Counted from the first letter of the stretch, positions 25,771-63,419 are shown. The stretch: DNA of 64,000 nt from Actinomycetes bacterium (GCA_050743265.1 JBOGEN010000107.1:5612-69611), one strand, 5' to 3'. A program made the numbers and translations. The notes: generated by a model from the letters alone, not told the origin.

Positions 25771-25822
25771 GGCACCCTCCTGACGAGCTCCTCGAGCCGG
25801 ACGCACCCCGCGGGGACCTGCC

Positions 25823-27516: not shown

Positions 27517-27595
27517 CACAGCTCCTCACAGGTCAGGGCGACGCACGGACGGTACGGGCGTGGTCCGTGACACAGCAACGGTCTCCTCCCCGGCA

Positions 27596-37785: not shown

Positions 37786-38826
37786 CTACCTGACGCGTAC
37801 CTCCTCGGCCGGGCGCCGGCCCGAACGTGGACTGTCGATTCCGAGCCATCGGAGGGCGTTCCTCGCCGTGATCGCGTCGAGTACGTCCGGCGCCAGCCCC
37901 ATCGAGAGCAGCGTGCGGCCCGCCGGCTCCTCGCGCGGCATCGCCGGGAAGTCGGAACCGACCAGCAGCCGATCGGAGCCGAGAAGGTCGATCAGGAACC
38001 GGATCGCGCGGTGGTCGAAGACCAGCGAGTCGTAGTAGAAGCGCCGCGCGAGCTCGAGTGGCGACGGGCCGTCGTCCGGCATGAGTGCCCGCTCGGTCAC
38101 CGGCGGCTCCTCGTTCCACGAGCCACCCCAGAAGTACTGCGCGCGCGGCACCATGAGCGGAAAGCCGCCCGCGGCGTGGCTGAACGAGATCCGCAGGTCC
38201 GGGCACCTGGCGGCCGTGCCGCCGAGGATGAGGGAGGCTGCGGCCAGCGCCCCCTCGATGCCGACGACGTAGGTGCCCCTGGCGGACGTCGGCAACCGAT
38301 CGGTCGGGGTGGGCAGGGCGTGGACGAAGACCGCGAGGCCGAGCCGCTCGGCTTCGGCGAAGAACGGCAGGAACCTCTCCTCACCGATGGAGACGCCCAG
38401 CACGTTGGAGGCGATCTCCACGCCGAGCAGGCCGTGGTCGCGGACGACGGTCAGCTCGGAGGCCGCGGCGTCCGGGTCCTGGAGCGGAACCATGCCGAAC
38501 CCGATCAGCCGACTGGTGTCGTACGCACACAGCTCGGCCGTGAACGCGTTGACGTGCCGGGCGAGGGCGAGACCGTCGGCGAGCGCCAAGCCGTAGTTCA
38601 GCAAAGGCGGCATCGGGGTGAGGACCTCGAGGTCCACCCCGGAGTCGTCCATCTCTTCCACGCGCCGCTCGGCGTCGAAGAAGACGTCCCGGGCCTTGAA
38701 GCGCGTGCTCCCGAAGACCAACGTCCGGGCGGTACTCCCGTCGACCGGCTCCATGCGGGGAAAACACTCGGGAGCATCGGCCGGGTAGTCCCGCGGCAGG
38801 AGGTGGGCGTGGGCATCGACGAGCAC
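37786..38826 (-). CDS. Amidohydrolase-2 (ACMSD-like TIM-barrel metal hydrolase/decarboxylase) family protein
   Basis: MLVDAHAHLLP… metal-binding HxH start, and the internal HA…D motifs of the amidohydrolase_2 family. Confidence 0.7.
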   Translation of the reverse strand: MLVDAHAHLLPRDYPADAPECFPRMEPVDGSTARTLVFGSTRFKARDVFFDAERRVEEMDDSGVDLEVLTPMPPLLNYGLALADGLALARHVNAFTAELCAYDTSRLIGFGMVPLQDPDAAASELTVVRDHGLLGVEIASNVLGVSIGEERFLPFFAEAERLGLAVFVHALPTPTDRLPTSARGTYVVGIEGALAAASLILGGTAARCPDLRISFSHAAGGFPLMVPRAQYFWGGSWNEEPPVTERALMPDDGPSPLELARRFYYDSLVFDHRAIRFLIDLLGSDRLLVGSDFPAMPREEPAGRTLLSMGLAPDVLDAITARNALRWLGIDSPRSGRRPAEEVRVR

Positions 38827-38844
38827 GAGAGCCTCCAGGAGCCC

Positions 38845-39951
38845 TCAGCCGGCGTTCGGGTGGACCGAGACGTGGACGGCGGCCTCGTCTGCGACCTCGC
38901 CGCCGAGGGTCTCGACGGCCAGTGCGGTCTCGTCGAGTCCGAACGTGTGGGTGTGCATCTTCTCCAGCGGGACGCGGCGCGACTCGATGAGTGCGATCGC
39001 CTCGGCGTAGGCCGTGGCGTCCACGCCGAAGGCGCCGCGTACCGTGAGCGCGCGCTGGATCATCAGGTCGGTGCGGAGCGGTATCTCGCGCCCGCCCTTG
39101 AGACCGGCCAGCACCACGCGGCCCCCGTGGCGTACGGCGAGCATGGCGTCGCTGACCGGCTCGGCCGCCATCGGCGTCAGCTCGAGCGCGACGTCCGCCA
39201 TCGCCCCGTCGGTGACCTCCCGCACCCGGTCGACCGTGTCCTCGGCGTCGTCCCCGTCGACGACGATGCAGTGGTCGGCACCGAACTCACGAGCGAGGGC
39301 GAGCTTGTGGGCGTCGGCAGCCAGACCGGTGATGATGATCGTCCCGGCACCGGCGGCGCGTGCGGCGATCACGGCGGCGATCCCTCGCTGTCCCGACCCC
39401 AGGACCAGCACGGTCTCGCCGAGCCGAACCTCACCGAGGTGACATGCCCACCGCACGCCGGCGCCGAGCGGGTTGAACATGACCGCGAGCTCGGCGGGCA
39501 AGGTGTTGTCGATCTTGTGCAGAACCGAGGTGGGCGAGAGGTACATGTGCTCCGCCAGCCCGCCCCAGATCCCGGGTTCGGTGTCCACGCCGGTGACTCC
39601 GTGGCCGTACCTGCGGTTGCTGCAGGACTGGTAGCGGCCGGTGAGGCAGTTATGGCAGGCGCGGCACGGCACGATCACCTCGACGGCCACCCGGTCACCG
39701 GGCTGGACGCCCCAACGCGCTGCGGCGCGGTCGCCGACCTCCTCGACGATCCCCAGCGGCTCATGACCGGGGACGAAGGGGGGCTTGCCCTTCCCGAGAT
39801 GACCGCGGTAGGTCTCGACGTCGCTGCCGCAGATGCCGTTGGCCTCGACGCGTAGGAGACCGTCGTCAGGACCGGTGACGGGGCGGGTGAACTCGCGCAT
39901 CTCGATCGTCCGTGGCGCGGTCTGGACGGCGGCACGTACCAGGTCACTCAT
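38845..39951 (-). CDS. Zinc-binding MDR-family alcohol dehydrogenase
   Basis: GICGSDVETYRG…GHEPLG catalytic Zn motif. GxGxxG NAD site VLGSGQRGIAAV. Confidence 0.8.
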   Translation of the reverse strand: MSDLVRAAVQTAPRTIEMREFTRPVTGPDDGLLRVEANGICGSDVETYRGHLGKGKPPFVPGHEPLGIVEEVGDRAAARWGVQPGDRVAVEVIVPCRACHNCLTGRYQSCSNRRYGHGVTGVDTEPGIWGGLAEHMYLSPTSVLHKIDNTLPAELAVMFNPLGAGVRWACHLGEVRLGETVLVLGSGQRGIAAVIAARAAGAGTIIITGLAADAHKLALAREFGADHCIVVDGDDAEDTVDRVREVTDGAMADVALELTPMAAEPVSDAMLAVRHGGRVVLAGLKGGREIPLRTDLMIQRALTVRGAFGVDATAYAEAIALIESRRVPLEKMHTHTFGLDETALAVETLGGEVADEAAVHVSVHPNAG

Positions 39952-39962
39952 CAGGTCTCTCC

Positions 39963-40538
39963 TCAGCGCTCCAGCAGGCGGTCACATCGGTCCCCGGTCG
40001 TCAGCAGGGACACGACCTCGGGCACCAGCCGCCTCCCTCGCTCCCTGACCTCCTCGGGAGTCAGTGCTGACACCGGATGCTCGGTGACGACGTAGTCGTA
40101 GTCCGGCGCGCCACGGAGCTCGGCCATCGCGTCCGCCGTGACGACGAACTCCTCGGTGCAGATCACGGCTGCCGGCAGGCCCGCCTGCTCGAACAGGATC
40201 CCGTCGGCAACCGCCGACGCACTGCACGACTCGCAGTCACCGACACCGGTGACGACGAGGTCGCACGTCCGGCGGTACCGCTCGGCGACCTCGTCGGACA
40301 CCGGCCAGGCGAAGGCAGCCTTGCTCTGGACCAGGCTGACGGAGGCCACGCCGTGCTCGGCGACGAGCAGCGTCCCGATGGCAGCCAGCAGGAGCTCGGC
40401 GTTGCGCTTCGAGTTCCCCAGGAGTCCCACACGGGCAGCGGCGAGGTCCGGACGGCGCTGCGCGAGACCGGTCCGGTACAGCTTCTCCGGACCTGTGACG
40501 CCGGTCCATCCGGTCGGGAGGACGAACTCGTCCGGCAC
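39963..40538 (-). CDS. UGSC-family protein, Cys-containing paralogue (CESC motif), copy 1
   Basis: …DLVVTGVGDCESCSASAVADGILFEQAGLPAAVICTEEF… Paralogous to 50067..50621 and to the TGA-containing 55253..55789. Confidence 0.65.
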   Translation of the reverse strand: MPDEFVLPTGWTGVTGPEKLYRTGLAQRRPDLAAARVGLLGNSKRNAELLLAAIGTLLVAEHGVASVSLVQSKAAFAWPVSDEVAERYRRTCDLVVTGVGDCESCSASAVADGILFEQAGLPAAVICTEEFVVTADAMAELRGAPDYDYVVTEHPVSALTPEEVRERGRRLVPEVVSLLTTGDRCDRLLER

Positions 40539-40597
40539 CGGGCACCCCCTCGGGTCAGCTCAGGCACGCGATACGGCGGCATGGCTTCGCGCGGCAC

Positions 40598-41719
40598 TCA
40601 GCTCTCGTGGACGATCACACCGCGGATGTTCTTGCCCTCGGTGAGGTCGCGATAGGCGTCGTTGACCTCGTCGAGCCGGTAACGGCGGGTGATCAGCTCG
40701 TCCAGCTTGAGATCGCCGGCGCGGTAGAGGTCCAGCAGCCTCGGAATGTCGAACAGGGGGTTGCAGTCGCCGAACAGCGCACCGCGGACCTGTCGCTGGT
40801 AGCTGATCAACGCGCCGGCGTGGACGTGCACCGCGCGCTCGCCGGCGTGCCCGACGGCGGTGATGACGACCTTGCCACCCTTGCCGACCACCTGGACGGC
40901 ATCGTTCACCATCTCCTCGGTGACGACCCCAGGCGTGCAGATCGCGCGATCGGCCAGCTTGCCCCACGTCGTCTCGACGACGAACTCGTGCGCCTCCTTG
41001 GCCGTGGCAAAGGTGTGGGTGGCGCCGAAGAACGTGGCCGTGTCGCGCTTGAACTCGACCGGGTCCACGACCACCACGTTCTTCGCGCCGGCGTACCTGG
41101 CCCCTTGCACCGCGTTGCTCCCCAGGCCCCCCGCGCCGTAGATCACGACGGTCTCACCGGCTCGTACGCCGGCGGAGTAGACGGCCGAGCCCCAGCCCGT
41201 CGGTACGCCACAGCCGACCAGCGAGGCGACGTCGAACGGGATGTCGTCGGCGATCGGCACGCAGGCGAACTCGGAGACCACGGCGTACTGCGAGAAGGTC
41301 CCGAGCGAGCAGAAGCCGCCGAGGTCCTCCTCACCGAGGTGGAACCGGAAGGTCCCGTCGAGGAACATGCCGGTCCCGGCGTTGAGGCCCTTGACGCACA
41401 TGTTCTGGTGTCCCGCCGAACAGGGACGGCAGGCACCACATGCGGGGATGTACGAGCAGACGATGCGGTCGCCGACCTTGACACGTCGGACGTGCGGTCC
41501 GACGGCCTCGACGACCCCGGCGCCCTCGTGCCCCCCGACGATCGGGAACCGTGCGCGGGCGACGTCCCCGGTCGTGATGTGGTGGTCGGAGTGGCAGAGG
41601 CCGGCGGCGTGGAACCGCACGCGGACCTCGTACTCCTTGGGGTCGTCGAGCTGCAGCTCCGCCAGCTCCCAGCCGATGTGGGGGCCTCGTGCGATAGCAG
41701 CTCGGGTCGTGATGCTCAT
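40598..41719 (-). CDS. Class-III-like Zn alcohol dehydrogenase of the NDMA/mycofactocin-dependent type
   Basis: GLCHSDHH…GHEGAGVV Zn motifs. Start MSITTRAAIARGP. Close paralogue of 43240..44349. Confidence 0.75.
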   Translation of the reverse strand: MSITTRAAIARGPHIGWELAELQLDDPKEYEVRVRFHAAGLCHSDHHITTGDVARARFPIVGGHEGAGVVEAVGPHVRRVKVGDRIVCSYIPACGACRPCSAGHQNMCVKGLNAGTGMFLDGTFRFHLGEEDLGGFCSLGTFSQYAVVSEFACVPIADDIPFDVASLVGCGVPTGWGSAVYSAGVRAGETVVIYGAGGLGSNAVQGARYAGAKNVVVVDPVEFKRDTATFFGATHTFATAKEAHEFVVETTWGKLADRAICTPGVVTEEMVNDAVQVVGKGGKVVITAVGHAGERAVHVHAGALISYQRQVRGALFGDCNPLFDIPRLLDLYRAGDLKLDELITRRYRLDEVNDAYRDLTEGKNIRGVIVHES

Positions 41720-41756
41720 CAGCCTCTTCTCCTCCCTCGTACGCGGGTCGCCGGCC

Positions 41757-43229
41757 TCACGCGGTGCCGCGCAAAGAGACCGTCTTGACCTGCGTGTACT
41801 CGAGGACCGCGTCTGCCCCCATCGTTCTGCCGAACCCGCTGCGCTTGTAGCCGCCGAACGGGCCGCCGATGACTCCGGCTCCGATGGCGTTGTTGACACC
41901 CACCTGACCCGCGAGCAGGCGACGACTCATCCGGACGGCCTTGCCCACGTCCGCCGTCCACACCGACGCGACCAGGCCGTAGTCCGTCCCGTTGGCGACC
42001 TCGAGGGCCTCGTCCTCGTCGTCGACCGGGATGACCGAGAGCACCGGCCCGAAGATCTCCTCCCGGGCGATGCGCATCTGCGGTGCGACCTCGTCGAAGA
42101 GCGTCGGCTCGACGAAGAGGCCGCGCTCGTACTGCTCACCGGACGGCGGCCCGCCGCCCGTGACGAGCTCCGCGCCCTCGTCACGACCGACCTGCATGTA
42201 GCCCAGGACGCGGGCGTGCTGCTGCTCGTTGATCAACGGACCCATCCGCACCTTCTCGTGCCAGGGACCGATACTCACGGTGGCCATGTGCTCGGCGAGG
42301 CGCGAGACCACCTCACGATGCACGCTGCGCTCGACCAGGACGCGTGACCCGGCGGCGCAGACCTGTCCGGTGTTCAGGGTGATGCCGGCGATCATGGCGG
42401 GCACGGCGACGTCGAGGTCGGCGTCGGCGAAGACCAGCTGCGGGGACTTGCCGCCGAGCTCCAGGTGCAGCGGGGTGAGGTTCCTGGCGCACGCCGCCAT
42501 CACCAGCTCGCCCGTCTCGGGCGATCCGGTGAAGCTCATCCGGCGGATCCGCGGATGGGCGGGGATGGCCGCGCCCGCCTCCTCGCCGTACCCGGTGACC
42601 ACGTTGATGACGCCGGGCGGGATCCCGGCCTCGAGCGCCAGCTTGGCCAGCGCGAGTGGCGTGAGGGGCGCGTCCTCGGCGGGCTTGATCACGATGGTGT
42701 TGCCGGCGGCGATGGCGGCTCCGACGTCGTTGCTGAACATCGCCCCCGGTGCGTTCCACGGGATCACGCTGCCGACCACGCCGTACGGCTCACGCAGGGT
42801 CAGACCGAGGACGTCCGGTGTGTGCGTGGGCAGGGAGAGGCCGTGCACCTTGTCCGCCTGCCCGGCGATGAACCGGAGGATCCGCGGCATGGGGGGCGGA
42901 CCCCAGTGAGGTCGGCCCACCTCCTGGGACTCGAGCTGGTCGATCTCGGCGGCGTGCTCGTCGACGAGCTGCGCCCACCGGTGGATGAGCTCGCCGCGGG
43001 TGGTGGACTTGGTGTCCCGCCACGCCGGGTACGCCTCTTCGGCCGCCAGGACGGCCCGGTCGACGTCGGCCTTGTCCCCGCGGGGAACGCGGGCCAGGAC
43101 CTCCCTGGTGGCAGGGTTGATCACGTCGATGGTCTCGTTCGTCGCAGCCGGCACCCACTCGCCACCGATGAGGTGCGCGCCTTCCACGAGCAGCGACCCG
43201 GTCGACGTCGGGGCTGTGATGGTCGTCAT
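41757..43229 (-). CDS. Aldehyde dehydrogenase-family protein
   Basis: ELGGKSP and the catalytic Cys region NTGQVCAAGSR. Confidence 0.85.
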   Translation of the reverse strand: MTTITAPTSTGSLLVEGAHLIGGEWVPAATNETIDVINPATREVLARVPRGDKADVDRAVLAAEEAYPAWRDTKSTTRGELIHRWAQLVDEHAAEIDQLESQEVGRPHWGPPPMPRILRFIAGQADKVHGLSLPTHTPDVLGLTLREPYGVVGSVIPWNAPGAMFSNDVGAAIAAGNTIVIKPAEDAPLTPLALAKLALEAGIPPGVINVVTGYGEEAGAAIPAHPRIRRMSFTGSPETGELVMAACARNLTPLHLELGGKSPQLVFADADLDVAVPAMIAGITLNTGQVCAAGSRVLVERSVHREVVSRLAEHMATVSIGPWHEKVRMGPLINEQQHARVLGYMQVGRDEGAELVTGGGPPSGEQYERGLFVEPTLFDEVAPQMRIAREEIFGPVLSVIPVDDEDEALEVANGTDYGLVASVWTADVGKAVRMSRRLLAGQVGVNNAIGAGVIGGPFGGYKRSGFGRTMGADAVLEYTQVKTVSLRGTA

Positions 43230-43239
43230 TCGTCGCTCC

Positions 43240-44349
43240 TCAGTGCTCGTGAATGATCACGCCGCGGACGTTCTTGCCGTCCAACATGTCCTGGTAGCCC
43301 TGGTTGACGTCCTCCAGGCGGTAGCGGCGGGTGATGAGCTCGTCCAGCTTGAGATGGCCGCTGCGGTAGAGACCGAAAAGGTGCGGCACGTCGAAGAGCG
43401 GGTTGCAGCCCCCGAAGATTGCCCCCTGGACTCGGCGCTCGTAGCCGATGAACATGCCGGGGTGCTCGTTGATCGAGCCGTTGCCCACCGCGGTGATCGT
43501 GACCTGGCCGGCCTTGCCGACGACCGCGAGGGCATCGTGGATCACCTCGTCGTGCAGGACGCCGACCGTGATGATGGCGTGGTCCGCGAGCTCGCCCCAC
43601 GTCGTCTCGACGACGAAGTCGTGGGCCTCCTTGGCCGAGGCGAAGGTGTGCGTGGCCCCGAACTCCATGGCCGACTCGCGCTTGAACTCGACCGGGTCCA
43701 CCACGACGACGTTCTTGGCCCCCGCCAGGCTGGCGCCCTGCACGGCGTTCATGCCCACGCCGCCCGAGCCGTAGGTCACCACGGTCTGGCCGGCACGGAC
43801 TCCCGCGGCGTGGACGGCGGACCCCCAGCCCGTGGGGACGCCGCACGCGACGAGAGCGGCCGAGTCGAACGGGATGTCCTTCGCGATCGGGATGCAGGAG
43901 AACTCGGAGACGACGGCGTACCGGGAGAACGTCCCGAGAACACACAGCCCGCCGAAGTCCTCGCCGTCCTGGTGGAACCTGAACGTCCCGTCCGGGAACA
44001 TCCCGGTCGAGGCGTTCTTGCCCGCATCGCACAGGTTCTGGCGTCCGGTCGAGCAGTAGCGACACGAGCCGCAGACGGGGATGAACGAGCACACCACGTG
44101 GTCGCCGGCGGACACGCGGGTCACGCCGTCCCCCACCGCATCCACCACGCCGGCACCCTCGTGCCCTCCGACCACCGGGAAGCGCATCCGCGCGTCACCC
44201 TTCTGGATGTGGTCGTCGGAGTGGCACAAGCCGGCCGCATGGAACTTGATGCGGACCTCGTTGGCCTTCGGCTCGTCGAGCTCCAGCTCGGTGATCTCCC
44301 AGGGCCGGCCAGGCTCGCGGCACACCGCGGCGAGGGTCGTCATGCTCAT
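43240..44349 (-). CDS. Class-III-like Zn alcohol dehydrogenase (NDMA/mycofactocin-dependent type), paralogue
   Basis: GLCHSDDH…GHEGAGVV. Start MSMTTLAAV. Confidence 0.75.
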   Translation of the reverse strand: MSMTTLAAVCREPGRPWEITELELDEPKANEVRIKFHAAGLCHSDDHIQKGDARMRFPVVGGHEGAGVVDAVGDGVTRVSAGDHVVCSFIPVCGSCRYCSTGRQNLCDAGKNASTGMFPDGTFRFHQDGEDFGGLCVLGTFSRYAVVSEFSCIPIAKDIPFDSAALVACGVPTGWGSAVHAAGVRAGQTVVTYGSGGVGMNAVQGASLAGAKNVVVVDPVEFKRESAMEFGATHTFASAKEAHDFVVETTWGELADHAIITVGVLHDEVIHDALAVVGKAGQVTITAVGNGSINEHPGMFIGYERRVQGAIFGGCNPLFDVPHLFGLYRSGHLKLDELITRRYRLEDVNQGYQDMLDGKNVRGVIIHEH

Positions 44350-44722
44350 GTGGATGCCCTTCCCCAAGGTGACGATGGCCAGCAGCCACGCCCACCGGCG
44401 GCGGGCGTCTGCGTCATGTCGGGCGAGGCCGCCCGTGGCCACCTCACGATCGCGTCACACCAGCACCGGGCACCACAGCCTTTTCACTTCGCGGAAGACG
44501 AACCTGCGCTCCCGCGGGCGAGGCCGAGGCGTCCGCACCGTGCTTCTGTGACGTGGAAGAGCCGGTTCCCCCGACGTCTGAGCCCTGTTAACTTCCCGGC
44601 ATTCGCAGGCGCGTCGCCAAACACGTCGTCACCTGCCCTTTGTGCGCCGCGAGACGCTGCCGGGCCCATGCGCGTGCGCGTCGCCGTTGTCGGTCCTGTT
44701 GCTCTGCTCGGAAGGATGCGTC

Positions 44723-45469
44723 GTGATCGACAAGGTTCGGGAGGACGTGATGGCCACGCTCGACGTGGTCCCGTCAGGGGCGTCGATCGCCGTGGGGGGC
44801 TTCGGGAGCTCGGGAAGACCGGACACCCTGCTGGACGCGTTGTGCGACCTGGACCGTCGTGACCTTCACCTGATCGTCAACAACGTCGGAAACGACTTCA
44901 CGGGAGTCGGCCGCCTGGTGGTCGAGCGCCGTGTGCGCAGGCTGACAGCGTCGTTTCCGGTGCTCCCGGAGTTCTACGACGAGTACTTCGCCGGCAGGGT
45001 GGAGTTCGAGCTGATCCCCCAGGGAACCCTGGCCGAGCGGCTGCGTGCGGGTGGGGCCGGCATTCCGGCGTTCTTCACGCCCTCCGGCGCCGGCACCATG
45101 CTGGCCGATGGCAGCTTTCCCCTGCGGTACGCCGACAGCGCTCCCGTGGAACACCTCGCGGCCAAGGAGAGCCGCCAGTTCGGGGGGCGCGAGCACGTCC
45201 TCGAGTACGGCATCGTCGCCGACTTCGGCCTGGTGAAGGCACACAAGGCCGATCCCAAGGGGAACCTGCGCTTCCGGCTGTCGGCACGCAACTTCAACCC
45301 GCTCGCCGCGATGTCGGCCAGACACACCTTCGCGGAGGTGGAGCACATCGTTCGAGCCGACGAGATCCACCCGGACGACGTCCACCTCCCTGGCGTGTGT
45401 GTGGACGACGTCTTCCTCGCATCCGGCGCATCGCCCAGGCAACCGACGACCGTGGGGGCCTCGTCATGA
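44723..45469 (+). CDS. CoA-transferase subunit A (3-oxoacid CoA-transferase family)
   Basis: GASIAVGGFGSSGRP N-terminal motif. GTG start 7 nt after ggaagga. Confidence 0.8.
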   Translation: MIDKVREDVMATLDVVPSGASIAVGGFGSSGRPDTLLDALCDLDRRDLHLIVNNVGNDFTGVGRLVVERRVRRLTASFPVLPEFYDEYFAGRVEFELIPQGTLAERLRAGGAGIPAFFTPSGAGTMLADGSFPLRYADSAPVEHLAAKESRQFGGREHVLEYGIVADFGLVKAHKADPKGNLRFRLSARNFNPLAAMSARHTFAEVEHIVRADEIHPDDVHLPGVCVDDVFLASGASPRQPTTVGASS

Positions 45470-46134
45470 CAGACACCGTCAGCCCGGCCACCGTGGTCGG
45501 ACGCAGCCGGGAGGCCATCGCCGAGCGGCTCGCCCAGGACTTCGAGGACGGCTACGTCGTCAACCTGGGCGTGGGGATCCCCCTTGCCGTCCCACGGTTC
45601 ATCCCCGACGGCGTCGAGGTCTTCCTGCATGCAGAGCACGGTGTCTTTGGCCTCGGCCCGTTGGCAGCTCCTGGTGAGGAGGACCTGGACCTGACCGACG
45701 CGGGGAAGCAGCCGGTCACGCTGATCAGCGGCGCCGCCATCGTCGACTCCGCCACGTCGTTCGCCATCATCCGCGGCGGGCACCTCGACGTGGCCGTCCT
45801 GGGAGCGCTGCAGGTCTCCGGCACCGGCGACCTGGCGAACTGGTACGTCCCGGGTAAGAACCCTGCGGTCGGTGGCGCGATGGACCTGGTCGCGGGCACT
45901 CCGGAGGTGTGGGTCACGATGGAGCACGTCGACCGACGAGGGCGACCGAAGATCGTCGAGGAGTGCACCTTCCCTCTGACCGGCCGGGGCGTGGTCACCC
46001 GTGTGTACACCGACCTGGCGGTCTTCCACGTCGTGGAGGGTGAGCTCCGCCTCACCGAATGCGCTCCGGGCGTGTCACCGAGCGACATTCGGAGCCGTAC
46101 GGCAGCGCCGTACGTGGACATGCTCGACGCGTGA
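45466..46134 (+). CDS. CoA-transferase subunit B
   Basis: ATGA overlap with subunit A. NLGVGIP…L..SGTGDLANW motifs. Confidence 0.8.
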   Translation: MTDTVSPATVVGRSREAIAERLAQDFEDGYVVNLGVGIPLAVPRFIPDGVEVFLHAEHGVFGLGPLAAPGEEDLDLTDAGKQPVTLISGAAIVDSATSFAIIRGGHLDVAVLGALQVSGTGDLANWYVPGKNPAVGGAMDLVAGTPEVWVTMEHVDRRGRPKIVEECTFPLTGRGVVTRVYTDLAVFHVVEGELRLTECAPGVSPSDIRSRTAAPYVDMLDA

Positions 46135-46187
46135 CCGTCACCCGACGACCCAGCCCTCACCGAACCGACGACGAGGAAAGAGTCACC

Positions 46188-47096
46188 GTGCCGGATATCG
46201 ACGTCGACAGCACCATCGCGATCGACGTGCACACGCACGTGCACCGCTCCGTCCGCGCCCCGGAGAGGCGAGGGGGCGGCAACGAGGAGATGGGCGGGTA
46301 CTTCGGGATCGGCACGATGCCGCACTACACCGTTCCCGAGCTGGCCGCCTACTACCGAGAACGCAACATGGTCTGCGTCGCCTTCACGGTCGACAACCTG
46401 ACCCCCGCCTCCGACGAGCCCGAGGTGGACAACGTCGAGATCGCGGAGCTGGCGGCGGAGCACGCGGACGTGATCATCCCGTTCGCCAGCGTCCATCCCG
46501 CACGTGGGCAGGCCGGTGCGCGTCTGGCACGGCGACTCGTGACCGACTACGGCGTGCGAGGGTTCAAGTTCCACCCGAACACGCAGGGCTTCTATCCGAA
46601 CGACCGGGTCGCGTACCCCCTCTACGAGATCATCGCCGAGTACGGACTGGTGGCCCTCTTCCACACCGGGCAGACCGGCGTCGGGGCAGGCGCGCACGGT
46701 GGCGGCGGGGTGCGGCTCAAGTACTCGAACCCGCTCCACGTCGACGACGTCGCCGTCGACTTCCCCGACATGGACATCATTCTCGCCCACCCCTCGTTCC
46801 CGTGGCAGGACGAGGCGCTCTCGATCGCCACGCACAAGCCGCGCGTCTACATCGACCTCTCCGGCTGGTCGCCGAAGTACTTCCCGCCTCAGCTGGTGCG
46901 CTACGCCAACAGCCTCCTCCGCACCAAGGTGCTCTTCGGCTCCGACTTCCCCGCCATCACCCCGGAGCGGTGGATGAGCGACTTCGAGAAGCTCGACCTC
47001 AAGCCGGAGGTGAGGCCGCTCATCATGAAGGACAACGCCGCGCGCCTCTTCGGTCTCACCAACGGCACGGCCGCATCCCCCGACAAGGAGCACTGA
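46188..47096 (+). CDS. Amidohydrolase-2-family TIM-barrel hydrolase
   Basis: GTG start 7 nt after aggaaaga. IDVHTHVH metal-binding start, …FKFHP…, and HPSFPW near the C-terminus. Confidence 0.7.
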   Translation: MPDIDVDSTIAIDVHTHVHRSVRAPERRGGGNEEMGGYFGIGTMPHYTVPELAAYYRERNMVCVAFTVDNLTPASDEPEVDNVEIAELAAEHADVIIPFASVHPARGQAGARLARRLVTDYGVRGFKFHPNTQGFYPNDRVAYPLYEIIAEYGLVALFHTGQTGVGAGAHGGGGVRLKYSNPLHVDDVAVDFPDMDIILAHPSFPWQDEALSIATHKPRVYIDLSGWSPKYFPPQLVRYANSLLRTKVLFGSDFPAITPERWMSDFEKLDLKPEVRPLIMKDNAARLFGLTNGTAASPDKEH

Positions 47097-47101
47097 GCGC
47101 C

Positions 47102-48037
47102 ATGGAGGACGTCACGGGCAAGGTCGCCTTCATCACAGGCGGCTCCAGCGGGATCGGCCGGGGAATCGCCCTGGCGTTCGCGCGAGCGGGGATGTCCGTC
47201 GTGATCAGCGGACGGCGACAGCAGCACCTGGACGAGTCGGCGGCCATGTTCGAGGCGGAGGGGCTCGACGTCCACGGAATGCGGCTCGACGTCACCGACG
47301 CGTCTGCTGTCGAGCGGGCCGCCGCGGACACGGAGCGACGGTACGGGGCCGTCCACGTGCTGGTGAACAACGCCGGCATCGGGCTCAGCGGCCCGGTGGC
47401 CCAAGCCAAGCGTGGCGACTGGGACTGGCTCATCGACGTCAACATCCGAGGCGTAGGACACGGCCTGCAGGCTTTCCTCCCCCGCATCCGCGCTCACGGG
47501 GAGGGCGGCCACATCGTGAACACCACGTCCATGGCGGGGCTGCTCCCCGTGGTCGCCGGGCTCTACAGCATGACGAAGGCCGCGGTCATCGCACTCTCGG
47601 AGACGCTGCACATCGAGCTCGCCGACGAGAACATCGGCGTCTCGGCGTACTGCCCCGGGCCGGTCATCAGCAACATCGCGTCGGGCAGAGCCGAACGGCC
47701 GGCGCAGTACGCAGACACCGGCTACGCCCCGCCTGACCCTGCGCGAGCAGCCCGCGCGCAGTCGATGCCCTACATGAGCGCCATCGAGGCCGGGGAGCGT
47801 GTGCTCCACGGGGTTCGGCGCAACGACCTGTTCATCCTCACCCATCCCGAGTTCCGGGAGGGTGTGCGGGAGCGTTTCGAGACGGTGCTCGAGGCCTTTC
47901 CCGACGAGCCGCTCGACGACGAGCGTGCCTCGACGATCACGTTCCTGACCTCGCACCAGGCCTACGCACCCGGGTCCCGGCCGGAGCCACCGCAGGGACC
48001 GTTCAGGGCACGTACGCCGGCGTCGAGTCCAGGGTGA
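47102..48037 (+). CDS. SDR-family oxidoreductase
   Basis: AFITGGSSGIGRG and YSMTKAA catalytic motif. The track ORF 46001..48037 is a read-through artefact. Confidence 0.8.
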   Translation: MEDVTGKVAFITGGSSGIGRGIALAFARAGMSVVISGRRQQHLDESAAMFEAEGLDVHGMRLDVTDASAVERAAADTERRYGAVHVLVNNAGIGLSGPVAQAKRGDWDWLIDVNIRGVGHGLQAFLPRIRAHGEGGHIVNTTSMAGLLPVVAGLYSMTKAAVIALSETLHIELADENIGVSAYCPGPVISNIASGRAERPAQYADTGYAPPDPARAARAQSMPYMSAIEAGERVLHGVRRNDLFILTHPEFREGVRERFETVLEAFPDEPLDDERASTITFLTSHQAYAPGSRPEPPQGPFRARTPASSPG

Positions 48038-48941
48038 CCAGCGGCCGCGGACCGGCCAGGTCCTCCGCCGCCGCCGGAGCGTAGGCGAAGTTCTTCGCGC
48101 GGGCGCCGCCGTCGACGACCAGGTCCATCCCGGTGATCAGCCTCGCGTAGTCGGAGCACAGCCATGCCACGGTGTGCCCGAGGTCGGTCGGGGTGCCGGT
48201 CGTGCCCATCGGCACCATGGGCGCGCGCTCACCCGTCCAGCGGCTCGGCCGGCGCCACGGCTCGTCGCCGGTTGGTCCGCCGAGGCCACCCCCGCGGCCC
48301 CGGTGCATGACGCTGCCCGTGTTGAGCCCGGCTCGTGCCCGCTCGGCGATGAGCTCGGGGTTGTCGGGCGTCGGGGCTGTCGGCGTGACGCCGTTGACCC
48401 GGATCCCGTACGGCGCCAGGTCCATCGCCGCGGCGCGTACGAAGTTGTTCACGCCGCCCTTGTGGAAGGCGTACGCGATGATGCCCGCCGATCCCGACCA
48501 CCCGTTCGACGAGGAGATGCAGACGACCGACCCTTTGGTGCCCTGTTCGGCCATCACCCGGCCGACCTGCTTGGTGTTGAGGAAGTAGCCCAGCGACGAG
48601 ACACGCACGGCACGTTCGAAGTTCTCGGCGCTCTCGTCGAGCACGCCCTTTCCGCCGAGCAGCGCCGCGTTGTTCACGAGGATGTCGATGCGCCCCCAGC
48701 GCTCCAGTACCGCGTCGACGTAGCGCTGCACCGCGCCCTCGTCCGTCACGTCGCCCGGGGCAGCCATCGCCTCCCCGCCGTTGCGCTCGATCCGGCGGAT
48801 GCACGCGGAGATCACCGAGTCGTTCACGTCGTTGCACGCCACCTTCGCGCCGTACCGCGAGAGTGCGAGCGCGACGCCGCTGCCGATGTTGGGTCCGACA
48901 CCGGTGACGAGCGCGACCATGCCGTCGAGCGAGACCTCCAC
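48003..48941 (-). CDS. SDR-family oxidoreductase
   Basis: ALVTGVGPNIGSG, NNAA, and YAFHKGG catalytic region. Confidence 0.75.
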   Translation of the reverse strand: MEVSLDGMVALVTGVGPNIGSGVALALSRYGAKVACNDVNDSVISACIRRIERNGGEAMAAPGDVTDEGAVQRYVDAVLERWGRIDILVNNAALLGGKGVLDESAENFERAVRVSSLGYFLNTKQVGRVMAEQGTKGSVVCISSSNGWSGSAGIIAYAFHKGGVNNFVRAAAMDLAPYGIRVNGVTPTAPTPDNPELIAERARAGLNTGSVMHRGRGGGLGGPTGDEPWRRPSRWTGERAPMVPMGTTGTPTDLGHTVAWLCSDYARLITGMDLVVDGGARAKNFAYAPAAAEDLAGPRPLVTLDSTPAYVP

Positions 48942-48996
48942 GGAGTCCCCTTCTGTCGATTGCGGTTCACCTGCACGGATCGCGGCTTCTGGGGGC

Positions 48997-50070
48997 TCAG
49001 GACCCTGCCGCTGACCCTGCCTGGCTGGCCTGCTGCGACGACTCGACGCGCTCCGACCGGCCCGACCATGGCGTCCAGCCGAACGGGCGGAAGACCATGG
49101 ACATGGCGGCGTTGGCCGCGCCCGCCACGAGCAGGGTGATGGCGTGGGCGGACGGCATCATCGGGAAGCGCTGCTCATCCCCGTCCGGGCTCTCCGGTAC
49201 GTGCTCGCCTTTGCCCGCGGCGACGAGATCGGCACGGCTACGCACCGACAGCTCGTGGAGCCGCTGCTGTACGTCCGCCCGGCTGTACCCGGCTGTGCCG
49301 AGGAGCTGAGCATGTTCGGGGCCCAGGACCACACCGCCACTCGAGTGCTTGCCACCCACGTAGGCACCTGACCGGGCCAGCGTGTCGGCCAGGTCGCGCA
49401 GCACCTCCTCCGGGTCCTCCGTCTGGCGATTGTCCACGAACTCGCATGTCCTGATCAGCATGGCCGAGACCGCGTCCACGCCGCGCTCGACGCCACCGAC
49501 CACGCTGAGCGGCTCCCAGGGCGAGAGCTCCTCGTTCTCGCCCAGGCAGAGGGACCAGCGACCCGGCAGGCCCTGTGTCGACTGCTCGAGCTGTTGCGGC
49601 CGTATCCGGTACGCGTTGCGCACGATCAGTCCGAGCGCACGCGCGATCGTCGCGTTGGGACGGAAGCCGGGGCCGAACACGCCCCCGGCGCAGTTGATGC
49701 CGAGCCTCGACCTGACCGGGCCGTTGACGACGAGGAGTGGGGCCGGCCCGCTCGTGGACTGCCACGCGCCACCACCGCTCGCCCGTTCCAGGCTCAGCGC
49801 GTCCCAGGCGGCGAGGACGACGGGGAAGTACTCGGGCTTGCATCCCGCCATGACCGCGTTCGCCGCCGCCTGTGCGACGGTCACGCGACGGCGGAGGTGC
49901 TCCTGGGTGCCGATGACCTCCGACGGGTCACGGGCTGTCGTGGCGAGGAACTCCTCCACGTCGGCCTCGGTGGCCGGGACGACAGGTAGCCCGTCGGTCC
50001 AGCCCTGCTCGAAGCAGTACTCGACGGCGGCCCTGGCATCTCTGACAGGGTCGCCCAGGGATGTCGTCAT
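48997..50070 (-). CDS. Conserved hypothetical protein, partner of UGSC-family protein (copy A)
   Basis: Start overlaps the stop of the UGSC gene by 4 nt. Shares GWTDGLPVVP, AGC(K/R)PEYFPVVLAAW, LLVNGP(I/V)R(S/T)RLG(I/V)N.AG and GPEHA.LL blocks with 55786..56925. Confidence 0.55.
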   Translation of the reverse strand: MTTSLGDPVRDARAAVEYCFEQGWTDGLPVVPATEADVEEFLATTARDPSEVIGTQEHLRRRVTVAQAAANAVMAGCKPEYFPVVLAAWDALSLERASGGGAWQSTSGPAPLLVVNGPVRSRLGINCAGGVFGPGFRPNATIARALGLIVRNAYRIRPQQLEQSTQGLPGRWSLCLGENEELSPWEPLSVVGGVERGVDAVSAMLIRTCEFVDNRQTEDPEEVLRDLADTLARSGAYVGGKHSSGGVVLGPEHAQLLGTAGYSRADVQQRLHELSVRSRADLVAAGKGEHVPESPDGDEQRFPMMPSAHAITLLVAGAANAAMSMVFRPFGWTPWSGRSERVESSQQASQAGSAAGS

Positions 50071-50621
50071 GGGCGCGCCGCCGCAGCCGCGTCGGTCAGC
50101 AAGGCCACGATCTGGGGCACGACCTTCTCGGCGCGTGCCCGGATGCCGTCACGGTTCAGGCTGGCCACCGGATGGTCCGTGGTGACGTACCTGTAGCCGG
50201 GTGCGCCTTGCACCTCGGCCATGGCGTCGGCGCTGACCGTGAACGCGTCGGTGCAGATGACGACGGAGGGCACTCCGGACTGTTCGAGCAGGAGACCGTC
50301 GGCGACCGCCGACGCGCTGCACGAGCCGCAGTCGCCGACGCCGGTGACCACGATGTCGCAGGCCGCGAGCTCGTCGAGCATCTCTGCCGGCACGGGGTGG
50401 GTGATGCTCAGCTTCTTCCGCGCGAGCACGGGCTTCACGCCGTACTGCTCCCGCATCAGTGAGGCCACGTCCTCGAGGAACTGCTCCGCGTTGCGCTTCG
50501 TGTTGGCCAGCAACCCGAGACTGAGCCCCTCCAGGTCTGCCGGCCGTGGAGCAAGGCCAGCCCGTGCCCGGTCCGGAGCGACATCCGAGCCCACGGTGGG
50601 GTCGACGATGCTGTCGAACAC
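50067..50621 (-). CDS. UGSC-family protein, Cys-containing paralogue (CGSC motif), copy 2
   Basis: …DIVVTGVGDCGSCSASAVADGLLLEQSGVPSVVICTDAF…. Confidence 0.65.
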   Translation of the reverse strand: MFDSIVDPTVGSDVAPDRARAGLAPRPADLEGLSLGLLANTKRNAEQFLEDVASLMREQYGVKPVLARKKLSITHPVPAEMLDELAACDIVVTGVGDCGSCSASAVADGLLLEQSGVPSVVICTDAFTVSADAMAEVQGAPGYRYVTTDHPVASLNRDGIRARAEKVVPQIVALLTDAAAAARP

Positions 50622-50779
50622 AGGCCCCTCCTGGATCGTGGACGGAGATCGCGGACCGTGGCCCGGCCGATCCGACGCTACGTCAGCCGCGACACGGCAG
50701 ACAGACGTCTTTCACGTGACGGAACCCCGGACGAGTGGTCGGTCGCCTGGCAGCCTGTACCAGGTCCGGGGTGTCTCGC

Positions 50780-52225
50780 TCACCCGATGTTGACCCAGAC
50801 ACCCTTGGTCTCGGTGTAGGCGTCGAGCGCCTCACCAGTCATCTCGCGTCCCCAGCCGCTGGACTTGAAGCCACCCCACGGTGCGGCGGGGTCCAGCCTC
50901 GGCAGGGTGTTGACGAACACCTCACCGGCCCGGATCTGGTGGGCCATCCGGTGGCCACGAGCGACGTCGGACGTCCAGACGGAGGCAACCAGACCGAAGT
51001 CCGTGTCGTTGGCCCAGCCCACCAGCTCGTCCGGCTCGTCGTAGGTGATGACGGGCAGTACCGGCCCGAAGACCTCGTCCCGTGCGATCTGCATGCCGTG
51101 CTCGACGGATGCGACGAGCGTCGGCTCGAAGAAGTAGCCGGCGGCAAGGTCACCCTCGCCGCGCTTGCCTCCGACGAGGACCTTGGCGCCCTGCTCGACT
51201 CCAGACGTGACGAAGCCCTCGACCTTGTCGCGGTGCTCAGCCGAGATGAGCGGCCCGAGCTGGGTGCCCGGCGACGTGCCAGGTCCCATCGTGATGCTCG
51301 ACATGGCCGCGCCGAGCTTCTCGGTGAACTCGTCCGCCCGGCTGCGGTCGACGTAGAAGCGGCTGTACGCCGCGCAGGCCTGGCCACTGTTCACCAGCCC
51401 GCCGAGCATGTTGCCGCTGACGGCAGCGTCGATGTCGGCGTCAGCCATGACGATGCTGGGCGCCTTGCCGCCGAGCTCGAGCGAGACGCGCTTGAGGTTG
51501 CCTGCCGAGGCCGCGACGATCGACCGGCCGACCTCCGTCGAACCGGTGAACGACACCTTGTCGACCCCGGGATGCTCCACCAGCCGCTTGCCCACCTCCG
51601 GGCCACCGGTGAGGAGGTTCACCACGCCGGCAGGGACCCCAGCCTCCAGGCAGAGCTCTGCCAGGCGTGCGGTGCTCAGCGGCGTCTGCTCCGCGGGCTT
51701 GAGGATCACCGTGTTCCCCGCGGCCAGGGCCGGGGCGATCTTCCACACGGCGATGGTGAGCGGGAAGTTCCACGGGGTGATGAGCGCACAGACACCGACC
51801 GGCTCGCGCCTGGTGTAGTGCAGCATCCCTGGAACGGAGACCGGACTGGTGACACCGGTGATCTTGGTGCACCACCCCGCGTAGTAGCGCAGCATCTCCG
51901 CGGCGCCGCTCATGCTGCCGCGGGCGAAGCCGACGGACTGTCCCTGGTCCCTGCTCTCCAGCTCCGCCAGCTCGTCCGCGTTCTCCTCGACGAGGTCGGC
52001 GATCTTCCACAGCAGACGGGCCCGGGCGGCCGGCATCATCCCCGACCAGGCCGGATCGACGAAGGCGCGGGACGCTGCGTCCACCGCTGCGTCGACGTCT
52101 GCCGCGGTGGCCTCCACCGCGGTGCCGAGTACCTCTCCGGTCGCGGGATCCACCGTCTCGAACGTGTTCGCCGCCGTCCCGGCAGTCCATTCCCCGGCGA
52201 TCAGCAGCTGGACGTGCGTGGCCAT
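50780..52225 (-). CDS. Aldehyde dehydrogenase-family protein
   Basis: ELGGKAP and catalytic region NSGQACAAYSR. Confidence 0.85.
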   Translation of the reverse strand: MATHVQLLIAGEWTAGTAANTFETVDPATGEVLGTAVEATAADVDAAVDAASRAFVDPAWSGMMPAARARLLWKIADLVEENADELAELESRDQGQSVGFARGSMSGAAEMLRYYAGWCTKITGVTSPVSVPGMLHYTRREPVGVCALITPWNFPLTIAVWKIAPALAAGNTVILKPAEQTPLSTARLAELCLEAGVPAGVVNLLTGGPEVGKRLVEHPGVDKVSFTGSTEVGRSIVAASAGNLKRVSLELGGKAPSIVMADADIDAAVSGNMLGGLVNSGQACAAYSRFYVDRSRADEFTEKLGAAMSSITMGPGTSPGTQLGPLISAEHRDKVEGFVTSGVEQGAKVLVGGKRGEGDLAAGYFFEPTLVASVEHGMQIARDEVFGPVLPVITYDEPDELVGWANDTDFGLVASVWTSDVARGHRMAHQIRAGEVFVNTLPRLDPAAPWGGFKSSGWGREMTGEALDAYTETKGVWVNIG

Positions 52226-52251
52226 CGGGCCTCCCTCTGTGCGAGCACAGC

Positions 52252-53367
52252 TCAGTCGAAGCGGATCACACCGCGGAGCGTGCGGTGCTGGCGCATGTCC
52301 TCGTAACCGTCGTTGATCTGCACCAACGAGTAGGTGCGGGTGATGAGCTCATCGAGCAGCAAGTCGCCCTGCCGGTACAGGCTGAGGAGCCGCGGGATGT
52401 CGTACCGGGGGTTCGCGTTTCCGAACAGACAGCCCACGACGCGCTTCTGGTAGGCGGTGAGCTCGAACATGGGGAGCGTCACCTGATCGTCCGACACGTT
52501 GGCGAGGGACGTCAGCGCGACGGTTCCGAGCTTGCCGACCAGCGACAGTGCCTCCCCGATGAGCTCGCCGGTGGCCACGCCGACCGTGATCAGCGCAGCG
52601 TTGGCCATCTGACCGCGGGTCAGGTCCACGAGTGCCGCGCGTGCCTCGGTGACGTCGACGAAGGCGTGGGTGGCACCGAGCTGCCTTGCCTGGTCGCGAT
52701 TGAACTCCGACGGGTCCACCACGACGATCGTCGTGGCGCCGGCCATTCTGGCTCCCTGCACCGCGTTGGCTCCGACGCCACCGACCCCGAGGACGACGAC
52801 GGTGTCACCGGCTCGCGTCTCGGCGCCGTACACCGCCGTGCCCCATCCGGTGGTGACCCCGCAACCGACCAGCGCCGCCCTGTCGAGCGGGATGTCGTCG
52901 TCGATCTTGATGACCGAGCTCTCGCGCGTGACCGTGTACGGAGAGAACGTGCCCAACACGCACATCAGCCGTGCGTCCTCGCCGCCGACGTGGTGTCGCG
53001 AACTGCCGTCACGCTGAAGCCCGACGGTCAGGTCGGCTCCTTCGTCACAGAGGTTCTGGTTCCCGGAGGCGCAGGACGGGCACCGCCCGCAGGCCGGGAC
53101 GAAGCTGAGCACCACATGGTCACCCTCGGACACGCTGCGCACGTTCGTGCCGACGCTCTCCACGACGCCGGCCCCCTCGTGACCGCCGATGACGGGCAGG
53201 CCTTCCATGGGGAGATCACCGAGCCGGACGTGCTCGTCGGAATGGCACAACCCGGAGGCGCTCAGCCGGACCATCACCTCGCCGTCACGAGGGTCGTCGA
53301 GCTCGATCTCCTCGATCTGCCAGTCCTTGCCGTACTCGCGGAGCACAGCAGCCTGAGTCCTCACCAC
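52252..53367 (-). CDS. Zn-dependent alcohol dehydrogenase (class-III-like)
   Basis: GLCHSDEH…GHEGAGVV. Confidence 0.8.
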   Translation of the reverse strand: MVRTQAAVLREYGKDWQIEEIELDDPRDGEVMVRLSASGLCHSDEHVRLGDLPMEGLPVIGGHEGAGVVESVGTNVRSVSEGDHVVLSFVPACGRCPSCASGNQNLCDEGADLTVGLQRDGSSRHHVGGEDARLMCVLGTFSPYTVTRESSVIKIDDDIPLDRAALVGCGVTTGWGTAVYGAETRAGDTVVVLGVGGVGANAVQGARMAGATTIVVVDPSEFNRDQARQLGATHAFVDVTEARAALVDLTRGQMANAALITVGVATGELIGEALSLVGKLGTVALTSLANVSDDQVTLPMFELTAYQKRVVGCLFGNANPRYDIPRLLSLYRQGDLLLDELITRTYSLVQINDGYEDMRQHRTLRGVIRFD

Positions 53368-53568
53368 GCCTCCCGGAGGCTTCGCCGGATCGCCACAGAC
53401 GCGTCGGTAGCGATCGCCGCCCGGTGTCGAGGGCTGTTGCTGTGACCTGCCGAACGGCGGACTGAAGGTTGCCGAGTATGGCGAGCGCCTCCGTGACGGC
53501 GACAGGTCCGAGCGGCAAGTTACGTCAAATGGTGTAGGCAGCCTGACCGGACGTGGCTGACCCCACCC

Positions 53569-56925: not shown

Positions 56926-57185
56926 CTGCCGCAGATCGACCCTCCGTTGCTCAGGACTCCTTGGACGGCGCGTTCGCGGACGTGGCGAGGACGCTGGCCG
57001 CCGACGGGTACCAGGCGGAGTGGAGGCTCAACGAGCAGGGGGCCGTGGACTTCTGGGTCACCGCCTCCGAGGAGGCGTGTGCGGAGTGCCTCGTCCCGAT
57101 GCCGGTGATGCAGGCGATCCTCGAGGGCGCCCTCGAGGGGACGGGTCGAGAGCTCGGGCGCATCGAGATGCCCGCCGAGCACTGA
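56922..57185 (+). CDS. Small hypothetical protein (87 aa) with CxxC pair
   Basis: 4-nt start overlap with the upstream gene. Contains ACAECLVPMP. Stop lies inside the first unit of a 15-bp tandem repeat. Confidence 0.4.
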   Translation: MTAADRPSVAQDSLDGAFADVARTLAADGYQAEWRLNEQGAVDFWVTASEEACAECLVPMPVMQAILEGALEGTGRELGRIEMPAEH

Positions 57186-63411: not shown

Positions 63412-63419
63412 GCCACCCG

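Follow-up and report, generated by a model that had tools for sequence, protein, structure and literature searches.

Gene organization of the locus

We analysed a 64,000-nucleotide stretch of DNA from an Actinomycetes bacterium (GCA_050743265.1 JBOGEN010000107.1:5612-69611; hereafter, the window), concentrating on positions 37786-53367. A sequence-only reading had described this range as three tandem cassettes of alcohol dehydrogenases (ADHs) and aldehyde dehydrogenases (ALDHs), a probable catabolic island that uses mycofactocin as its redox carrier. Reading frames in the window, which is about 70% G+C, were picked by third-position GC, and families were assigned to the open reading frames (ORFs) with NCBIfam and Pfam profile searches. 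We counted 16 genes in the range, arranged in three runs. The first run lies on the minus strand and contains, in order, ADH2, ALDH1, ADH1, UGSC1, a medium-chain dehydrogenase/reductase-type Zn-dehydrogenase (MDR-ADH) and Amidohydro_2a, with intergenic gaps of 10-59 nt. A plus-strand run, divergent from ADH2, encodes the A and B subunits of a coenzyme A (CoA)-transferase, Amidohydro_2b and a short-chain dehydrogenase/reductase (SDR2). The second minus-strand run contains ADH3, ALDH2, UGSC2, Partner2 and SDR1, and the mycofactocin (mft) gene mftF lies directly upstream of it on the same strand. Between mftA and the range are a major facilitator superfamily (MFS) symporter, a five-gene Dpp-like ATP-binding cassette (ABC) importer and an IclR-family regulator.

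Much of the earlier description held. The three paralogous Zn-ADHs are present with their GLCHSD and GHEGAG motifs and four structural-zinc cysteines, family profiles identified the MDR-ADH, both Amidohydro_2 proteins, both SDRs and CoA-transferase A/B, and mftABCDE (23.8-27.5 kb) and mftF (53.6-55.0 kb) do flank the range, all of these mft genes scoring above their cut-offs. The anatomy proved to be different, however. Instead of three tandem cassettes there are two minus-strand runs and one plus-strand run, their gene orders differ, and the paralogues are 42-68% identical; only two of the three ALDHs assigned to the range are there, a further ALDH starting at 63359. Three genes in the range were absent from that account: UGSC1, UGSC2 and Partner2. 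It thereby overlooked UGSC and Partner, which are the most strongly conserved companions in the island. We also considered a recent tandem duplication of a cassette, which is ruled out by the 42-68% identity among paralogues and by the closer orthologues that each of them has elsewhere. The ADH and ALDH paralogues are old and anciently diverged, and they lie in differently ordered operons, with no repeated units. The functional unit exceeds 37786-53367 and extends from about 27.6 to 60.3 kb, or about 33 kb.

The three ADHs belong to TIGR03989

ADH1 (40598..41719), ADH2 (43240..44349) and ADH3 (52252..53367), all on the minus strand, are Zn-ADHs of the TIGR03989 family, which they match with 511.8, 514.2 and 547.6 bits, respectively, against a cut-off of 440. 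ADH1 and ADH2 are 68% identical, and ADH3 is 51-53% identical to either. C41, H63, E64 and C93/C96/C99/C107 are invariant in all three proteins, and G194-G199 of the GxGxxG site are present. TIGR03989 is the NCBIfam family 'NDMA-dependent alcohol dehydrogenase', a clade exclusive to mft-encoding species, for which SIMBAL analysis was flat (Haft 2011, PMC3023750). The nicotinoprotein property is not known to have a sequence signature. Genetic evidence is available for Mdo/Mno of M. smegmatis and EgaA of R. jostii, members that act with ALDHs in the use of ethanol, methanol and ethylene glycol.

The class III-like GLCHSD/GHEGAG motifs would also suit ordinary class III formaldehyde dehydrogenases (FDHs) that exchange NAD, depend on mycothiol or glutathione and lie near mft genes by coincidence. 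The nearest solved structures, which are those of ordinary ADHs, lean the same way; the search returned none for a close relative. The profile scores point elsewhere: the three proteins reach 211-218 bits on the mycothiol-FDH model TIGR03451 (cut-off 512.9) and 229-246 bits on the glutathione-FDH model TIGR02818 (cut-off 543.95), that is, 211-246 bits against cut-offs of 513/544, compared with 512-548 on TIGR03989 (440). Moreover, mft adjacency recurs in four other lineages, as described below. The FDH reading, already disfavoured, is in our view highly improbable, and the nicotinoprotein-type ADH family that the sequence-only reading had proposed is supported by placement in TIGR03989, far from the FDH cut-offs.

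The mft genes themselves are split. The minus-strand genes mftE, mftD, mftC, mftB and mftA occupy 23813..27519, each an NCBIfam equivalog above its cut-off, and the translated MftA protein ends in ...IDGMCGVY. A mycofactocin-coupled SDR (23014-23806; TIGR04504, 387 bits, cut-off 250) stands beside mftE, just downstream of the mft genes. The mycofactocin glycosyltransferase gene mftF (53569..55026, minus strand; TIGR03965, 362.4 bits, cut-off 280) is 26 kb away from mftA-E, where it heads the ADH3 run, between ADH3 and UGSC3. Thus all of mftA, B, C, D, E and F are in the window, but they do not form one contiguous cluster, mftF being detached. In the related loci L001, L002, L023 and L029, the ADH3 and UGSC3 genes diverge directly with no mftF between them. 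Because mftF is missing from this position in the closest relatives, L001 and L002, its placement is specific to the window lineage. An mft cluster usually includes mftR, and often mftG as well; no TetR-type MftR and no GMC-type MftG match was found among the window ORFs scanned, which are a subset of all ORFs.

The island in other genomes

To place the locus in a wider context, we sampled 80 genomic loci encoding relatives of Partner2 and mapped the window proteins onto them. The whole island is present in two metagenome contigs (L001 and L002) at 71-92% protein identity, and synteny across the island is retained at 59-83% identity in a Streptosporangiaceae metagenome-assembled genome (MAG; L004) and in Geodermatophilus sabuli (L011). 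Modestobacter has a similar order of gene families. Partial synteny was seen in Amycolatopsis, Actinophytocola, Microbacterium marinilacus and Solirubrobacterales, the last with a tight ALDH-SDR-MDR-Amidohydro_2-ADH-UGSC-Partner-SDR run. Among 18 loci of the Partner2 type, 12 encode an ADH at least 55% identical to that of the window, 9 an ALDH and 4 an SBP_bac_5 binding protein; all seven of the ADHs tested from such loci scored above the TIGR03989 cut-off.

Genes for mycofactocin were found within 10 kb in 4 of these 18 loci: mftC-D-E-F in L010, mftF in L007 and L019, and mftC in L028. The three single-gene calls are above the NCBIfam cut-offs, and the L010 set was recognized by tblastn at 38-69% identity. 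Such a genome devotes well under 1% of its length to an mft cluster, and so chance would hardly account for the repeated adjacency. The presence of mft genes near related islands in four other lineages agrees with the association that the sequence-only reading had expected to find elsewhere. Likewise, three TIGR03989 genes within 13 kb, with mft genes on both sides, are not a chance arrangement; the same island recurs in other genera. Of the original proposal of mycofactocin-linked alcohol oxidation, then, the ADH family and the conserved context speak in favour, whereas the details of cassettes and ALDH number did not stand.

The locus resembles the published regions around Mdo/Mno (MSMEG_6242) and around EgaA with AldA1/AldA2 in Rhodococcus jostii RHA1, which share the TIGR03989 family, the pairing with ALDHs and the presence of mftA-F in the region. 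It differs from them in having three diverged ADH paralogues and a detached mftF ahead of an ADH operon. It also differs, as far as those loci have been published, in the UGSC/Partner, CoA-transferase and Amidohydro_2 genes embedded in the island. The link between mycofactocin and ADHs has been known since 2011, and the window adds an example without changing the paradigm.

A UGSC-Partner module embedded in the island

What is new is the embedded module of UGSC, Partner and CxxC proteins, with a selenoprotein among them, which occurs repeatedly near TIGR03989 ADHs and mft genes in Actinobacteria. UGSC1 (39963..40538, minus strand; motif DCESC) and UGSC2 (50067..50621, minus strand; motif DCGSC) are cysteine forms that score 151.6 and 167.6 bits on NF041046 (cut-off 125) and match PF24696. 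The end of UGSC2 and the start of Partner2 overlap by 4 nt. Partner2 (48997..50070, minus strand) is a protein of 357 aa outside any Pfam or NCBIfam family. Beyond mftF, on the plus strand, the selenocysteine (Sec) form UGSC3 (55253..55789; motif D-U-G-S-C) is followed by Partner3 (55786..56925), which is 51% identical to Partner2 and overlaps the UGSC3 stop by 4 nt, and then by an 87-aa CxxC protein with the motif A-C-x-x-C-L-x-P (56922..57185), recognized by alignment and a hidden Markov model (HMM).

Across the sampled loci, Partner has a UGSC gene within 2.5 kb in 72 of 80, in several phyla, and many UGSC-Partner fusion proteins exist; the annotated start of Sec forms is often placed just past the UGA. 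By HMM, the CxxC protein follows Partner or is fused to it in 23 loci. The fusions include a Partner-CxxC protein (P0243) and CxxC-UGSC-Partner in one chain, with a full UGSC domain (P0255), and in a single case (P0366) UGSC-Partner is joined to the catalytic domain of a ferredoxin:thioredoxin reductase (FTR). The C-terminal extensions of P0259 and P0323 were disregarded as probable mistranslated sequence. The Partner family comprises 5,772 clusters at 50% identity, and its named members are all 'hypothetical'; Cys77 and Cys175 are conserved in 98% and 95%, respectively, of 101 diverse members. UGSC, Partner and often a CxxC protein of about 80 aa form a separate conserved module, present in three copies in the island, one of them with selenocysteine.

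The copies differ in their completeness. UGSC1 has no adjacent Partner in the window, where an 11-nt gap separates it from the MDR-ADH gene, and a Partner lies between the two in L004 and L019; the window lineage seems to have cleanly lost the Partner copy beside UGSC1. A CxxC gene of about 78 aa follows Partner2 in L001 and Modestobacter and is absent at Partner2 of the window. The copies also differ in their company. The Cys-type Partner2 module travels with TIGR03989 ADHs, an ALDH, SDR1 and a pair formed by MDR-ADH and an ACMSD-like gene, and the Sec-type Partner3 module with the CxxC protein, a PF12831 flavin adenine dinucleotide (FAD) oxidoreductase and an IlvD/Edd-family dehydratase. In some loci (L023 and L029) the Sec-type module also has a divergent ADH3 orthologue.

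Structure prediction gave a UGSC model (predicted local distance difference test score (pLDDT) 88) with a flavodoxin-like three-layer fold, in which the U/C-x-x-C motif would sit at the N-terminus of the helix after strand 3. A fold search with this model returned just generic flavodoxin-like matches (template modelling (TM) scores of 0.4-0.5). For Partner (model pLDDT 82), the best fold match had an E-value of 5e-3 and a TM score of about 0.22, which we counted as no match; the weak hits, to class I fumarate hydratase, Toblerone-fold and RidA-like proteins, were not accepted. Sequence searches of the PDB with UGSC and Partner gave nothing below E 0.9, searches of Pfam with Partner2, Partner3 and the CxxC protein at E<=10 gave nothing meaningful, and an exact look-up of Partner2 in the contig index returned no record.

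A predicted selenocysteine form of UGSC

UGSC3 contains an in-frame TGA at 55541-55543 that aligns with the motif cysteine of its paralogues (VVTGVGD-U-GSCSA), and the read-through product aligns over its full length; its score of 52.8 bits on NF041046 reflects the part before the TGA only. The listed UGSC genes of related loci that share this TGA codon number 32 and come from Actinobacteria, Chloroflexota, Proteobacteria and other groups. A hairpin resembling a selenocysteine insertion sequence (SECIS) lies at 55557..55571 on the plus strand. It begins 16 nt past the UGA and has five base pairs in its stem and GU in its apical loop. Across 15 loci, four of its five pairs show compensatory changes. 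The fold of the single sequence is not significant alone (z-score -0.11), its energy being unexceptional in GC-rich DNA. Since the TGA is conserved and the hairpin covaries, comparative sequence evidence marks UGSC3 as a genuine selenoprotein gene. A pseudogene is ruled out by the same conserved TGA and SECIS. Gene callers split UGSC3, giving products of 97 aa and 67 aa in L001. No tRNA was found in the window, and no sel genes (selA, selB, selC or selD) were found among the window ORFs scanned.

The most abundant selenoproteins of the Global Ocean Sampling (GOS) metagenomes were reported to include UGSC-containing proteins (Zhang and Gladyshev 2008). The proteins described here agree with the published UGSC selenoproteins in the U/C-G-S-C motif, in the existence of Sec and Cys forms and in a SECIS after the UGA (Zhang and Gladyshev 2008). 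The fusion domain named there 'Unknown_1' is most likely the Partner family. The literature assigns UGSC no function and predicts for it a thioredoxin-like fold, whereas our model is flavodoxin-like. Neither the obligate pairing with Partner, nor the third CxxC component, nor the link to TIGR03989 and mft is described in the UGSC papers returned by our full-text searches, and a 2026 review still lists the function of UGSC as unknown. The islands thus give a genomic context to a protein that was reported in 2008 as a major selenoprotein of marine and freshwater metagenomes. Because UGSC occurs in islands of culturable Actinobacteria (Modestobacter, Geodermatophilus, Amycolatopsis and Microbacterium), its function becomes testable by genetics.

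A mechanistic analogy may be drawn with GrdA/B of glycine, sarcosine and betaine reductase and with PrdB of D-proline reductase, in which a small U-x-x-C/C-x-x-U protein works with a larger catalytic subunit and a disulfide-reductase-type protein provides the electrons. Unlike a homology, this likeness is one of mechanism only, as there is no sequence or fold relationship and no match to Pfam GRDB or Gly_reductase at E<=10. In contrast to the Grd and Prd systems, moreover, the hosts here are high-GC and probably aerobic Actinobacteria. From the anatomy of the module (pairing, fusions, conserved cysteines and structure models), we infer a thiol/selenol redox enzyme in which catalysis would fall to Partner, with UGSC as the redoxin dedicated to it. 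A more specific proposal is that UGSC, Partner and the CxxC protein make up a three-component Cys/Sec redox enzyme that in Actinobacteria is coupled to mycofactocin-dependent alcohol oxidation, either by a thiol/selenol step on the substrate or product of the ADHs or as an electron outlet, other than MftG, for reduced mycofactocin or the nicotinoproteins. We regard this coupling as speculative and rather unlikely. The genomic context of UGSC does raise the question of whether mycofactocin-dependent pathways include a thiol/selenol redox step.

The different company kept by the modules raises another explanation, that the locus is a mosaic of independent modules (ADH/ALDH; UGSC-Partner; CoA-transferase/hydrolase/SDR; Sec-type UGSC/FAD/IlvD) acting on different substrates and merely sharing a neighbourhood near mft. 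In L024, L026, L030 and L040, the Sec-type module and its CxxC, FAD_oxidored and IlvD-like companions occur without an adjacent ADH; relatives of ADH3 are found alone; neighbours outside Actinobacteria are heterogeneous; and the runs of the window differ in gene order. All of this would be expected of a mosaic. The same combination nevertheless forms a recurrent block, seen in the window lineage, Modestobacter, Geodermatophilus and the Streptosporangiaceae MAG, the Solirubrobacterales run is tight, and the operons share an upstream motif (below). We therefore consider a mosaic doubtful, albeit a serious alternative.

A proposed catabolic pathway

Taken together, the data lead us to favour, with a modest degree of confidence, a reading in which the region is the central part of a catabolic island, conserved in Actinobacteria, for an imported, hydroxyl-bearing substrate, with mycofactocin-type ADHs and an embedded UGSC module. 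In this pathway, the Dpp-like ABC system and the MFS carrier would import the substrate. The ADHs would act as nicotinoproteins with non-exchangeable NAD(H), oxidizing alcohols to aldehydes and passing electrons to mycofactocin, like Mdo/Mno and EgaA, and the ALDHs would convert the aldehydes to acids. Further processing of the carbon skeleton could fall to the CoA-transferase, the ACMSD-like and second Amidohydro_2 proteins, the MDR-ADH and the SDRs. Partner, recycled by the redoxin UGSC, might perform a reductive or thiol-dependent step on the same family of substrates. The sequence alcohol to aldehyde to acid to CoA-ester, as originally proposed, is something that we infer only.

Several observations weigh against this reading. 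The nicotinoprotein character and mycofactocin dependence of the ADHs are predicted from family membership and gene context. In 44 soil-metagenome loci with relatives of ADH3, no UGSC, Partner or mft gene was found nearby, so the link between ADH and UGSC holds in one direction only; the occurrence of ADH3 relatives in other contexts fits TIGR03989 as a family of many substrates and many contexts. Partner has no significant fold match in the PDB, and the fusion with an FTR domain was seen once. Outside Actinobacteria, the neighbours of UGSC-Partner vary (esterases, acyl-CoA dehydrogenase, thioesterases, peptidases and aldo-keto reductase), and annotation of the neighbours in three such loci revealed no common theme; the module is therefore not mycofactocin-specific. 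No ALDH, SDR or hydrolase reaches an equivalog cut-off. Finally, operon boundaries were inferred from gene spacing, as a scan for promoters and terminators returned zero sites, with no sigma-70-like promoter.

Associated enzymes and possible substrates

The two ALDHs in the range, ALDH1 (41757..43229, minus strand; NAD(P)-type) and ALDH2 (50780..52225, minus strand), were assigned by family profile and are 42% identical; ALDH1 reached no equivalog model. MDR-ADH (38845..39951, minus strand) resembles threonine and sorbitol dehydrogenases and is always paired with the ACMSD-like gene in related loci. The corresponding protein of the window, Amidohydro_2a (37786..38826, minus strand; PF04909), has ACMSD-type decarboxylases as its nearest solved relatives (E 3.5e-37, full length). 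Amidohydro_2b (ORF limits 46059..47096, plus strand; PF04909, with the Pfam match starting at residue 55) has a single solved relative, an uncharacterised structure. The subunits of a 3-oxoacid CoA-transferase are encoded on the plus strand at 44642-45469 (A; TIGR02429, 227.5 bits against 128.5) and in the ORF 45397-46134 (B; TIGR02428, 279.2 bits against 243.55), the true start of B being probably near 45470-45505. SDR1 (48003..48941, minus strand) adjoins Partner in many related loci, and SDR2 (47111..48037, plus strand) is a classical SDR; the two genes are convergent, and their 3' ends overlap by 35 nt. With 144 and 125 bits, respectively, on TIGR03971, SDR1 and SDR2 are outside the mycofactocin-coupled subfamilies (cut-offs: TIGR03971, 300; TIGR04504, 250; NF040491, 265 bits).

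Upstream, the MFS metabolite/H+ symporter (27596..28978, minus strand) was assigned by family profile, and its orthologues adjoin UGSC-Partner in L003, L005 and L006. The Dpp/Opp/Nik-type ABC importer (30786..36540, minus strand) consists of two ATPases, two permeases and an SBP_bac_5 binding protein (34894-36540). Orthologues of the latter (49-68% identity) stand beside the island in L003, L005, L006 and L019, and relatives (48-49%) beside ADH3 relatives in L088 and L089; the nearest solved binding proteins in the PDB take peptides, nickel or opines. The IclR-family regulator (36825..37757, plus strand) best matches the PcaR/PcaU/PobR subfamily, below the cut-off, and IclR homologues flank related loci. 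Conserved synteny hence supports the earlier suggestion that the importer and the regulator are part of the system. Downstream of the Sec-type module, FAD_oxidored (57270-58619, plus strand; PF12831) and the IlvD/Edd-family dehydratase (58654-60327, plus strand) both travel with that module, with synteny seen in L023, L024, L026 and L029. PDB searches with the FAD protein, the IlvD-like protein and the binding protein gave no clue to the substrate.

Some of these enzymes would suit an oxidative pathway for sugars or polyols, in which ADH, MDR and SDR enzymes oxidize the substrate, an Amidohydro_2 protein acts as lactonase, the IlvD/Edd enzyme dehydrates the aldonate and an ALDH acts on the semialdehyde. 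PF04909 includes sugar lactonases, MDR-ADH is nearest to sorbitol, xylitol and threonine dehydrogenases, and the IlvD-like protein resembles L-arabinonate, galactonate and dihydroxy-acid dehydratases. Yet Amidohydro_2a aligns over its full length with ACMSD-type decarboxylases and not with lactonases, genes for a sugar kinase, an aldolase and a typical sugar-binding protein are all absent from the window, the importer belongs to the peptide/nickel/opine type, and the CoA-transferase is left unexplained. We consider this pathway improbable.

The CoA-transferase, which falls in the PcaIJ/ScoAB families, and the PcaR/PcaU/PobR-like regulator would instead be accounted for by degradation of an aromatic or lignin-derived alcohol or aldehyde feeding a beta-ketoadipate-like route. 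Amidohydro_2a is related to the ACMSD and LigW decarboxylases, and models of phenylacetaldehyde and hydroxymuconic-semialdehyde dehydrogenases fit the ALDHs about as closely as any others. Against this, neither oxygenases for ring cleavage or ring hydroxylation nor a thiolase or other pca genes were found in the window, and each supporting match is below the equivalog cut-off. We consider the aromatic route likewise improbable. Some genes are explained by the polyol/sugar-acid reading and some by the aromatic-alcohol reading, but all of them by neither; the favoured reading, an island for an imported hydroxyl-bearing substrate, does not specify which.

A shared intergenic motif

Exact copies of GKTACGTCRNNTG occur at 29076, 29212, 53519..53531 (plus strand) and 55069, all of them intergenic and on the promoter side of genes: two upstream of the MFS gene, one upstream of ADH3 and one between mftF and UGSC3. 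The four copies compare with 0.09 expected in the window, for a pattern that was derived from the same data. Its core, TACGTCA, is present 11 times (2.3 expected), including at 36763 (in the divergent region between IclR and the binding-protein gene), 50679 (upstream of UGSC2) and 60379 (before the next binding-protein gene). The motif recurs at equivalent places in L029 and L006. Its sequence and positions suggest that GKTACGTCRNNTG may be a candidate shared operator, for IclR or another regulator, which we offer as a post hoc lead; its distribution fits co-regulation of the unit from about 27.6 to 60.3 kb. An Rfam scan of the whole window returned zero matches.

Flanking genes

Past the IlvD-like gene, 60581-64000 encodes an SsuA-like binding protein, an ABC ATPase and the third ALDH (start 63359), which crosses the end of the window; these genes may be a further transporter/ALDH unit of the island. 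Two genes upstream of the mft set, for a histidine/aromatic ammonia-lyase family protein (18143-19723) and a fused cytidylyltransferase/KdsC-like phosphatase (16663-18081), appear to be unrelated to the island.

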